Shown here: piece by piece, positions 20,440-23,400 of the stretch | Position numbering within the stretch: position 1 is the first letter of the stretch | How the letters are laid out: every line of letters begins with the position of its first letter | Assembly (NCBI GenBank): GCA_963819735.1 | Contig: CAWFXC010000005.1 | Coordinates: 556,460 to 620,459, forward strand | Direction of reading: 5' to 3' | DNA length: 64,000 nt | Source: an uncultured Actinomycetes bacterium | GTDB lineage: Bacteria > Actinomycetota > Acidimicrobiia > IMCC26256 > DASPTH01 | Notes under the pieces: model-generated | What the model was told of the DNA's origin: nothing | What the model saw: only the letters and a program-made list of their open reading frames with translations | The model's database searches: none | Program-made: the position numbers and the translations under genes

Positions 20440-23400
20440 TCAGTGCGCGGCGACTCGCAGGGTCTCGATCACGAGGTCGGACGACGACCAGGCCTGCACG
20501 CCGACGCGGTGGCCCTCGGCCGCTTCGCGGCCACGGTCGATCGACGCCTGCTTGAGGCTCTCGACGCGGAGAACCTCGCTGCCGTTGACCAGCGCGACCA
20601 GGTGGTCGTCGTGGAGCACGAGGCGAATCGTCAGCTTGCCGTACATCGACGTGATGTCGCCGGCGCCGACCCGGGCGATCGGGTTCCACAGCTCACGGTC
20701 GGCCTGCCACTGGCGCACCAGGTAGCCCCCGCCGTCGTAGATGGGGTCGATGTCGAACGAGTAGCCCGACATGCGCCCTTCGGCGTCGACGTCGGCGCGG
20801 AACAGGACGCCGAGGCCGGGACCGGAGCGGAAGTCGACGTCGACCTCCACCGCGAAGTCGTCGGCGGCGGAGACGTCGGCGAGCGCCCAGCGTTCGTCGG
20901 CGCGGCGCATGACCAGGGCACCCTGGCCGCGCACCTCGACGAGGGGCAGCGCGTTGCCCAGCTGCCAGTCGGATCCGGCGAAGACGAACTCCTCGACCTC
21001 GGGCTCCGGCTCCGTGCTCTCCGCCGGCGCGCCGGCTTCCAGCGCGGGCATCTCGGCGCGCCACATGATCGGCGGGAGCTCGTCGGCCACGGGCACGTCG
21101 ATCAGGCCCGGCTCGTCGTCGAGCACCTCGGGGATCACAGTCTCGGTGACCGTGTCCTCGAAGGTCGTGGTGTCTTCGAAGGTCGTGGTGTCTTCGTACG
21201 GTGCCGGCGCGAGCATCGGCGCGTCGGTGAGTTCCGGCGTATCGGTGTCGTCCGGGGTGAGCGGCTCGGTGAAGTCGGGCTCGACGAAGCTGGTCTCGGT
21301 CGTGTCGGTGTAGCTCGCGCGCGCCGCCCACTGTGACGTGAACGTGGTCTCGGGCTCCGACGTGGCGACCTCGTCGGTGGCGACGGTGTCGTCGTCGGTG
21401 GCGTCGATCGCCGGCTCGGCGCGCAGCTCCGACACGTCGATGAACGTGGCTTCGGCTTCCGTCTGGGTCTCGGTCTCGGTCTCGGTCTCGGCGTCGGTCG
21501 GGGTCTCGAACCCGGTCGGGCTCGGGGCATATCCGTACCCGTTGAGGGTGGGGTCGGCCTGCGGGTCGTCCTGCAGGGCCGTCGCGCCTTCGGTGCCGAG
21601 CAGGGAGTGCCAGGCGGCGGGGGTGTCGTCGTTCTCGTCGGACGTGCCCCAGTCGACGTAGAAACCGGTGTTGACGGCTTCGGGGTCGGGCTGGTGGTCC
21701 CACGGTCCAGGGTCGACGGCCGGGGCCACCGCGTCGGAGGCGGGCACGAGCGTCTCGGGGGTGGAGCCGTCGTAGCGCTCCCACGCCGGCGGCTCGGCGG
21801 CCCGATCGATCAGCGAATCGGTCGACGAATCGGTGGTCGAATACAGCGAATCGGTGGTCGAATACAGCGAATCGGTCAGCGAATCGGTGCTCGACTGCGG
21901 CACATCGGTCGCCGATTCGAGGGTCGATTCGAGCGTGGCCGCCAGCGTCGACTCGAGGTCGGCGCCGAAGATCGACTCGGTCGGCGTCGTCTCCGTTGCC
22001 GGCTGGTCGCCGGTGAGATCGGCCGGCCAGGTGTTCGAGTTCCAGGCGTCGGTCGCGAAGGCCTGGGTGGCCCAGCGGCCGGCGTGCGACTCGTCGCCGG
22101 TGTCCTGGGTGTCGGTGGTCTCGGCCGCGGCTGCGGAGTCGGCGTCCCGATTGCTCGGGACCCAGTCGTCGGTGCCCTCCCAGAAGGCGGGCGGGGCAGT
22201 GCCGGTTCCGCCGTCGAACGCCGGTGGCTGCCAGGGCGGGGGCTCCCAGACGTTGGTGTCGGCCGAATCGTGCCCCCACGGCGACGTTTCGGAGCCGTCC
22301 GGCTGCGATCCAGGTGTGTCGACGGGCCGACGGGCGAGCGGCGGCGACGACGAGGGCGGCGCGGCGAGGTTCCAGGTGTCGGAACCCTGGCGCAGGGCCA
22401 CGTCGATCGGCGGCGCATCGGCCGCACTCCAGCCTGCACCGCCGTCGATCAGCGTGGCGTCGGCAGTGCCGGTCGCGGCGGCAAAGCTCGCTTCGGCGGC
22501 CACCGTGGCCGCGTCGACGAGCTCGACCGGGTTGTCGAGCGACGCCGGAGGGGCGAGGAGGTCCGGGAACGGGGCGCCCGGGTCGGGCAGCGGCAGGGGC
22601 TCGGGCAGGCGGGCGAGCTCTTCGAACACGTCGACCGCGGCGTGCGGTTCCGGGTCGGATTCCAGGGCCCCGGCGCGCATGGTGGGCATCGCGGCGACGT
22701 CGGGCTCCGGGGTCAACCACGGCTCCGACGGCGGGGGCATCTCGTAGCTCGGGGCGCTAGCCGCGGCGGCGGCGGCAGCCGTGGCGGCGAATGCATCGGG
22801 GGCCGATTCGCCGACCGATTCGGCGACCGATTCGCCGACCGATTCGCCGGCCGATTCGGTGGCCGGGGTGGGGGTGGTCGCCTCCGGCTCGGGCGCCGAA
22901 TCGGCCGCGGCGATGGCGCGGGGACGGCGTCGCCCGCCACCGACCGGCGGCAGGATGAGGGCGCGGAGCCGTTGCGCCTCTTCGGGCGACACGTGCATGA
23001 CGCTCTGGAGACGGTCCTCGATCTTGTCGGGCTCGCGGCCGAGCGCGTCGGCGATCGCCTCGAGCTCGCGCCCCTTCACCGGAACGCGCTTGCCCGGGGG
23101 CAGCTCGCGCAGCTTGGTGAGGGTCGCGAGGTACGGGCCGAGGCCCGCGTCGTCCTGCCCGCGCCGGAGCAGAGCCAGGGTCTCACCCATCGAGGTGGGA
23201 CCGGCTTCGAGCTCGGGCACGGGGGTCTTGGGCACCAACTCCGAGATGTCGACGCCGCACGAGCCGGCGAGCACCCAGAGATCGCTCTCCGGGATCGGCG
23301 CCTTGCCGCGTTCGTACGCGACGAGCTCGCGCCGGCTGAGGCCGGCACCGCGGGCAACTTCGGAGAGCGACAGACCCTTGCGGCGACGCACGTCGCGCAG

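Follow-up and report, generated by a model that had tools for sequence, protein, structure and literature searches.

We examined a family of 12-nucleotide (nt) repeats arrayed at three loci, A, B and C, within a 64,000-nt stretch of DNA (the window; GC content ~70%) from an Acidimicrobiia bacterium. Arrays A and B lie within one gene, encoding a 1004-amino-acid (aa) regulator with an N-terminal HTH-XRE domain and a lectin-like C-terminal domain; array C lies within an unrelated gene, encoding a LivH-LivM-LivG-LivF transporter fusion of 1269 aa. One nucleotide unit is common to the three loci and is read in two codon phases. We consider that the arrays are probably lineage-specific, in-frame coding minisatellites, grown by slippage within permissive spacers, and that the copy within the Liv gene was seeded ectopically. 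The loci and their host genes are listed below.

20440 to 23454, (-) strand: gene for the 1004-aa regulator, host of arrays A and B (Pfam, AlphaFold, Foldseek).
21811 to 21895, (-) strand: array A, aa 523-548 of the regulator; unit ACC-GAT-TCG-CTG (TDSL).
21905 to 21935, (-) strand: two opposite-type units, CTC-GAA-TCG-ACC and CTC-GAA-TCG-GCG, read as LESTLESA (aa 507-514), directly upstream of A in the protein.
22801 to 22865, (-) strand: array B, aa 200-217 of the regulator; five units GSC-GAA-TCG-GYC, read as (T/G/A)ES(A/V).
22893 to 22908, (-) strand: a lone opposite-type unit GCC-GAT-TCG-GCG (ADSA, aa 183-186), 38 nt from array B.
35878 to 39687, (-) strand: gene for the LivH-LivM-LivG-LivF fusion, 1269 aa, host of array C (Pfam BPD_transp_2 twice and ABC_tran twice).
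37504 to 37627 (approximate), (-) strand: array C, degenerate 12-mers ACC/GCC/GGC-GAA-TCG-GCC/GTG/TTG/GTC, the last being GGC-GAT-TCG-CTC; a peptide of the present frame is NRWANRPISPNR.

The repeat unit

Inspection of the sequence, together with Tandem Repeats Finder, placed the three arrays where an earlier sequence-only reading of this DNA had put them, with the translations that it gave (TDSL/YSTTDSL for A, ESVG/ESVA for B and NRWA/NRP for C). The loci have in common the 12-nt unit NNC-GAW-TCG-SNS, with the core CCGAWTCGG, and a 12-nt period; written out, one 12-mer unit of this type is GGCGAATCGGTC, a palindrome centred on A/T. The core, (A)CCGAWTCGG(T), is an odd palindrome, and the E-type unit (GAA-TCG, ES) and the D-type unit (GAT-TCG, DS) are mutual reverse complements. 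Because the core is palindromic, the presence of the family in "both orientations", as was claimed for it, is sound as a description but equals a difference of the central A/T and requires no inversion; the opposite orientation may be nothing beyond a central A/T change. The accompanying claim of three reading frames came down to two phases, GAW|TCG for A and B, and AAT|CGG for C, which is indeed read out of phase.

The 8-mer CGAATCGG/CCGATTCG occurred 21 times in the window compared to 5.7 expected (0 of 100 shuffles reached 21), and the pattern of three cores within 34 nt was matched 8 times compared to 0 expected. Isolated 8-mers outside the arrays were at the level of chance (7 vs ~5.7 expected). 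The hexamer GATTCG was found 36 times vs 44 expected, and 19 of the 36 copies were inside the three loci (~350 nt), the hexamer being scarce elsewhere. A sensitive BLAST of the window gave no fourth locus in the 64 kb. The best cross-match between B and C extended over 24 nt at 96% identity, and that between A and B over 22 nt at 95% identity in inverted orientation; in addition, the final unit of C has nine contiguous bases of the unit of A in direct orientation. The flanks and internal spacers of A, B and C gave no mutual alignment, and the 12-mer units alone match.

Codon usage indicated that the resemblance resides in the DNA. Outside the arrays, Glu-Ser pairs in the window were written GAG-TCG 18 times and GAA-TCG once, and Asp-Ser pairs GAC-TCG 8 times and GAT-TCG twice; window-wide, GAA accounts for 19% of Glu codons and GAT for 17% of Asp codons. 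Inside the arrays, 13 of 13 pairs were GAA-TCG or GAT-TCG, and the use of these non-preferred pairs argues for relatedness at the nucleotide level and not at the peptide level. Codon-pair preference was thus ruled out as the cause of the common core, the preferred pairs being GAG-TCG and GAC-TCG, and the earlier statement that this is not ordinary codon-level repetition was borne out by tandem, nucleotide-related arrays built from non-preferred pairs. Avoidance or enrichment of GANTC was likewise ruled out, since its count in the window matches base composition. Rfam and tRNA scans revealed nothing at the arrays; the sole Rfam match in the window was a tRNA-Cys.

Arrays A and B within the regulator

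The regulator has an HTH_31/HTH_3 domain at aa 14-73 and a weak match to PF06439 at aa 844-989 (Pfam). In the AlphaFold model the HTH-XRE domain with its helical extension (aa 10-170) has a predicted local distance difference test score (pLDDT) >80, residues 172-811 have pLDDT <50 and constitute a predicted-disordered acidic middle of ~640 aa (isoelectric point 4.05; rich in A/T/P/D/E/S), and aa 820-1004 (pLDDT >80) form a beta-sandwich whose Foldseek matches were CBM66 and 3-keto-glycoside hydratase (DUF1080) folds. No transmembrane or hydrophobic segment was detected in the 1004 aa, and the protein is predicted to be a cytoplasmic-type regulator and not an obvious surface protein; of the "surface or regulatory protein" proposed earlier, the second half was retained, in keeping with the N-terminal HTH-XRE domain. 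The family is Acidimicrobiia-wide (79 homologues), the nearest relatives being ~76-84% identical in the conserved domains. Within the family the lectin/CBM66-like C-terminal domain is highly conserved, as is synteny with hexapeptide-transferase and methyltransferase genes, and the disorder is punctuated by the conserved islands VDVFEELARLPEP, DAPPIDVA, FWEGTDDW, GPWxHxPDPEAVxTGFYVDWGT and LPPIxWRA. The 1004-aa regulator itself is without an entry in the protein collection; the Liv protein encoded 15 kb away has one.

Array A includes 9-nt TAT-TCG-ACC inserts between units, which generate a perfect 21-nt repeat (Tandem Repeats Finder: period 21, 2.4 copies, 100% identity, 21826-21876, plus 12-nt sub-arrays). 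It occupies a spacer that is flanked by the conserved islands FWEGTDDW and GPWDHQPDPEAV and measures 38-197 aa among relatives; the pLDDT there is ~35-41. Array B, spelled ACC/GGC/GCC-GAA-TCG-GCC/GTC (period 12, 4.7 copies, 93% identity, 22803-22858), occupies the spacer from PRAI to VDVFEELARLPEP; relatives have 16-92 aa in this interval, the closest of them just 16 aa. The pLDDT over the two regulator arrays is 30-45. Both are read GAW|TCG, at +0.38 bits per codon against window codon usage, and the resulting acidic, Ser-rich tetrapeptides xESx/xDSx match the local composition. Arrays of ES/DS were found in almost none of the 79 homologues; on the favored account, arrays A and B are young.

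One or two units of the opposite type stand beside each main array. The pair at 21905-21935 forms with array A an inverted repeat of 27 nt (74% complementarity), and the lone unit at 22893-22908 forms with array B an inverted repeat of 19 nt (89% complementarity) that is paired in the single-stranded DNA fold. Single-stranded DNA folding of the arrays was modestly better than that of shuffles (z -1.7 to -2.8). We considered that the DNA between the inverted arrays A and B might be an invertible segment and set this aside, given the palindromic core, the D-type unit of C in direct orientation, and no evidence for an invertase or an alternative open reading frame (ORF). A long antisense ORF (21607-23442, (+) strand) is expected given 90% GC at third codon positions (GC3).

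Two unrelated repeats were noted in the same disordered region of the regulator:

21152 to 21196, (-) strand: 18-nt repeat, EDTTTF x2.5.
21452 to 21508, (-) strand: 6/18-nt repeat, (TE)n.

The EDTTTF repeat shows that the disordered region of the regulator breeds repeats generally. Other tandem repeats were seen in the variable spacers of relatives (ETFTT x4 in the array-A spacer, MSTKT x3 upstream of the C-terminal domain), and some relatives had none; the gene of one relative (P0018) has another 15-nt duplication (AETPS x2) in the same spacer, with zero GAWTCG.

Array C within the Liv fusion

The Liv fusion is a branched-chain amino-acid ATP-binding cassette transporter with two permease and two ATPase domains in one polypeptide. 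A database protein, P0080, is 100% identical to it; the fused architecture (~1200-1270 aa) is conserved in more than 100 Acidimicrobiia homologues, the nearest being ~77% identical. Array C is a clean 35-aa insertion within the LivM-LivG linker, between the second permease and the first ATPase domain, and is a gap in 31 of 31 aligned homologues; the linker is 62 aa vs 18-47 aa (median 25) in 119 homologues. The array has 8 GAWTCG-like cores spaced by 9-21 nt, of which Tandem Repeats Finder recognized 2.2 clean copies only (37544-37570).

Array C is read one base out of phase, AAT|CGG, yielding the peptide SVAPNRPPNRWNSPIRWANRWANRPISPNRSAIRS. The codon score was -1.0 bits per codon in this frame and +0.37 in the ES frame. 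All 6 of its 6 Asn codons are AAT (vs 1 of 15 in the rest of the gene), its Ile codons include ATT three times (vs 0 of 56 in the rest of the gene) and also ATA once, and GC3 was 0.62 compared to 0.92 in the remainder of the Liv gene. As the sequence-only reading had proposed, the 12-mer is read in another frame within the Liv linker; the codons used there are very rare ones. In the unused ES phase array C reads TESAAESVEFANSVGESLGESADFTESVGDSL, strikingly like the TESAGESVGESVAESVGESAPDAF of array B, so that TESAAESVEF..GESLGESADF in C parallels TESAGESV..GESAPDAF in B; furthermore, the YCGS spacer letters between the cores make coding sense in the ES phase only. The codon fit of the ES phase and these spacer letters argue against an origin of C as coding sequence in the frame now used; it was either copied in from a piece of an ES-phase array or is made of a motif that grows whatever the frame. 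On the favored account, array C is old and decayed.

The array is also a 111-nt imperfect palindrome (37504-37614) with 47-nt arms of 79% complementarity, whose outer 7-mers, TCCGTCG/CGACGGA, are perfectly complementary and are not part of the unit. Its two ends agree at 15 of 18 positions, a degree of matching that arrays of palindromic units reach almost of necessity, and neither A nor B has the non-unit part. No direct repeat flanking C, as a target-site duplication would leave, was found; the spacers that surround A and B do not align among relatives and so provide no boundaries for these two arrays. Immediately downstream of C on the coding strand is a perfect 7-bp hairpin, GGAACGG-ATCCC-CCGTTCC (37488-37506, (+) strand coordinates). 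A possible internal translation start on the coding strand is the GTG-GTG where the ATPase domain starts, preceded at 9 nt by a G-rich GGGGGAT.

Similar arrays in other genomes

Representative genomes were scanned for groups of three cores within 34 nt, and at least 120 loci were obtained. Among the matches listed, many phyla were represented and periods were 8-42 nt; 89 had a period that is a multiple of three, and a plurality of these were read as (D/E)S by a rough longest-ORF rule. The occurrence of core arrays in many phyla means that the 8-mer within repeats is not specific. Four Acidimicrobiia loci from the scan (L014, L029, L087, L095) were rejected as members of the same family because they have other periods and contexts, some apparently non-coding. 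Arrays of the type (GGC/GCC-GAA-TCG-GYC)n were found in seven metagenome contigs in unrelated contexts. Such arrays arise repeatedly, and they do not of themselves prove that the core is a hotspot. A comparison of GAATCG with GAGTCG cores in viral contigs (19 vs 7) was discarded as proof of a hotspot, being too confounded by composition.

Five viral contigs (L130, L132, L133, L137, L144; GC 0.64-0.68) carry near-identical, apparently non-coding arrays AAACCGAATCGGTTAGCGAATCGGTTAGCGAATCGGAACCGAAC, 12-nt-spaced palindromes that resemble operator, iteron or partition sites of high-GC phages. An Actinomycetes metagenome-assembled genome (L099, 4430-4610) has a 42-44-nt repeat of the same 12-mers (CCGATTCGCCGACCGATTCGGCG) that reads DSPTDSAPGFTESA; the frame switches between copies, one copy being 2 nt longer, and this represents either a sequencing indel or a non-coding array.

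Origin of the arrays

By comparison of their sequences with those of homologues, all three arrays appear as lineage-specific additions in length-variable spacers. We infer that a 12-nt unit was amplified head to tail by replication slippage, and that this would have taken place in two hypervariable disordered spacers of the regulator and in the cytoplasmic membrane-ATPase linker of the Liv fusion. A short piece of an ES-phase array would have been copied into that linker via template switching or ectopic repair; array C would then have expanded and later decayed, surviving there thanks to a length divisible by three and to a highly tolerant linker. Slippage has been described as a source of low-complexity regions in prokaryotic proteins (PMC6821194). 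Both host ORFs are continuous, with conserved domains on either side of the arrays. As the units are 12 and 21 nt and all lie inside ORFs, slippage alters length, never frame or expression, and the expected effect would be in-frame steps of 12 or 21 nt in spacer length, not switching. The proposal of a slippage-prone minisatellite thus fits lineage-specific tandem arrays in length-variable spacers; that of contingency-like variation fails, as units that are multiples of three deep inside ORFs always keep the frame, and that of a mobile sequence is weak: the 12-mers alone match, and no full-length consensus, target-site duplication or family-wide terminal repeat was found.

Several points weigh against this account. 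The adjacent opposite-type units are not predicted by simple slippage and need a central A/T substitution or hairpin-mediated template switching. Among 5.8 billion proteins, none shares at least three 5-mers with the ES-phase peptide of C; ectopic seeding would accordingly be an inference and, if real, old, and the lack of an in-frame donor means that any transfer was old or that only a unit or two moved. Copy-number variation at the arrays is a prediction of the account, and beyond the 64 kb the family may be much larger, which would favor a spreading element, or may consist of just three loci.

Four other explanations were weighed. Possible, although rather unlikely, is that the CCGAWTCGG 8-9-mer is an intrinsic slippage or hairpin hotspot and that three chance seeds grew in situ, each in the phase in which it happened to lie, with survival in permissive linkers only and without any movement of DNA. 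Seeds are plentiful (~1 per 10 kb, in keeping with the singleton 8-mers), no donor for C was found in the protein database, arrays with this core and periods of 8-42 nt are spread over many phyla among the matches listed, identical (GGCGAATCGGTC)n arrays occur in unrelated metagenome contigs, and the arrays fold somewhat better than shuffles. The 3-unit arrays in viral contigs, with GAATCG in excess of GAGTCG as the core, point the same way, but base composition and coding constraints are confounders there. Independent births, however, predict differing periods and spacer letters, as in the other genomes, whereas here the 12-nt period holds throughout; moreover, B and C have the YCGS spacer letters that are sensible in the ES phase only, a phase that C does not use, and they match each other over the 24 nt noted above. 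It is less probable still that the loci are copies of a selfish palindromic element of ~100-120 nt, comparable to a miniature inverted-repeat transposable element (MITE) or a Rickettsia palindromic element (RPE), which would have inverted CCGAWTCGG units at its ends and would enter coding regions in frame. Array C, a 111-nt imperfect palindrome with perfectly complementary outer 7-mers, cleanly inserted in frame into a conserved gene, has this appearance, all three loci measure ~100-120 nt when bounded by opposite-type units, and palindromic insertions that keep the frame of unrelated genes are known from RPEs (PMC10969869). Nevertheless, any array of palindromic units is automatically ~80% self-complementary; the parts outside the units (spacers, outer flanks and the terminal 7-mers of C) cannot be aligned among A, B and C, leaving no full-length consensus; no target-site duplication was seen; the unit copy number varies by locus, as in a satellite; and the 64 kb held neither a fourth copy nor a link to a transposase.

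Very improbable, in our judgment, is a functional array of DNA sites, i.e., palindromes with GANTC about one helical turn apart that a protein binds or modifies, for instance the HTH-XRE regulator or a GANTC methyltransferase, so that the motif and not the peptide was selected. In favor of this, an unvarying palindromic core stands between codons that differ non-synonymously, the non-preferred central A/T is kept, and apparently non-coding AACCGAATCGGTTAG arrays occur in high-GC phage contigs; but all three arrays are deep within ORFs and far from promoters, and every orthologue lacks a counterpart, including close relatives with the same regulator, which argues against a conserved regulatory role. 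GANTC occurs 166 times in the window vs ~176 expected from base composition, and recent amplification explains the invariance of the core equally well. We attach a similarly slight probability to an assembly artefact in which two compensating one-base homopolymer errors flank C and the linker is truly in the ES phase. That phase would give a far more typical acidic linker with normal codon scores, there are homopolymer runs on both sides of C (C-runs upstream at ~37640-37660, GGGGG downstream at ~37493-37497), and tandem repeats are reported to attract assembly errors (PMC6868369). Two errors of opposite sign would however be required within ~150 nt, the database protein P0080, which comes from the source assembly, has the same frame, the GCA ATA CGA GCG ACG CAA just upstream of C is codon-atypical in every frame, and what was inserted, compared with homologues, has a length exactly divisible by three.

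Comparison with known repeat systems

Contingency loci of phase-variable genes, as in Neisseria and Haemophilus, have units of 1-5, 7 or similar nt that shift the frame or the promoter spacing. Arrays A to C resemble them in being intragenic tracts prone to slipped-strand mispairing, but differ in having 12- and 21-nt units that keep the frame, and in being hosted by a cytoplasmic regulator and a transporter linker and not by surface antigens. The mycobacterial interspersed repetitive units that form variable-number tandem repeats (MIRU-VNTR) are 40-100 bp long, intergenic within operons and present at several loci, with copy number varying between strains. They too are an actinobacterial minisatellite family at several loci; here, in contrast, the unit is 12 nt and intragenic, with three loci in a 64-kb window.

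The closer parallel to A-C is with the coding minisatellites or VNTRs of low-complexity prokaryotic proteins, which have head-to-tail units in multiples of three, high unit identity, disordered length-variable spacers, a lineage-specific distribution and an origin by slippage (PMC6821194). Unlike the usual examples, one nucleotide unit is found here in two unrelated genes and two phases, with non-preferred codons and an odd-palindrome core. Array C also resembles RPEs and intragenic MITEs, short palindrome-rich insertions that lie in frame within conserved but unrelated genes and are tolerated where the site is permissive (PMC10969869). RPEs, however, are discrete elements of ~150 bp with a family consensus and a conserved peptide each, whereas here there is a 12-nt unit only, in variable copy number; the peptide differs by phase, and consensus ends or target duplications were not found.

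Other features of the window

A Ku-like protein is encoded at 29585-30571 ((+) strand), with a Lys/Ala-rich C-terminal tail from a 15-nt repeat at 30447-30529; the assignment is based upon reading of the sequence and synteny with L121 and L122 (PF02735 there), and LigD adjoins it in relatives. The tRNA-Cys is at 55330-55404, and GC falls from ~0.70-0.73 to 0.66-0.67 over 56000-64000, up to the end of the window; this low-GC stretch after the tRNA-Cys may be an integrated island.

Significance

The repeat family opens no new mechanism and has no bearing on phase variation. It is a small case study in which repeats in disordered protein regions can be related as DNA rather than as peptides, and in which a conserved multi-domain transporter accommodates 35 linker residues that come from repeat DNA read out of phase through very rare codons. 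Were the family widely dispersed in the genome, it would be a very small repeat spreading in frame, relevant to the birth of linkers and disordered regions. A bolder version, which we regard as speculative and improbable, is that the 12-mer is a self-propagating "micro-satellite seed" that spreads ectopically in Acidimicrobiia by hairpin formation or template switching, in any phase, and persists only in disordered linkers. If true, such a seed would amount to a minimal functional analogue of the RPEs and would supply new linker sequence, for example the Trp/Arg/Asn-rich linker of the Liv fusion.

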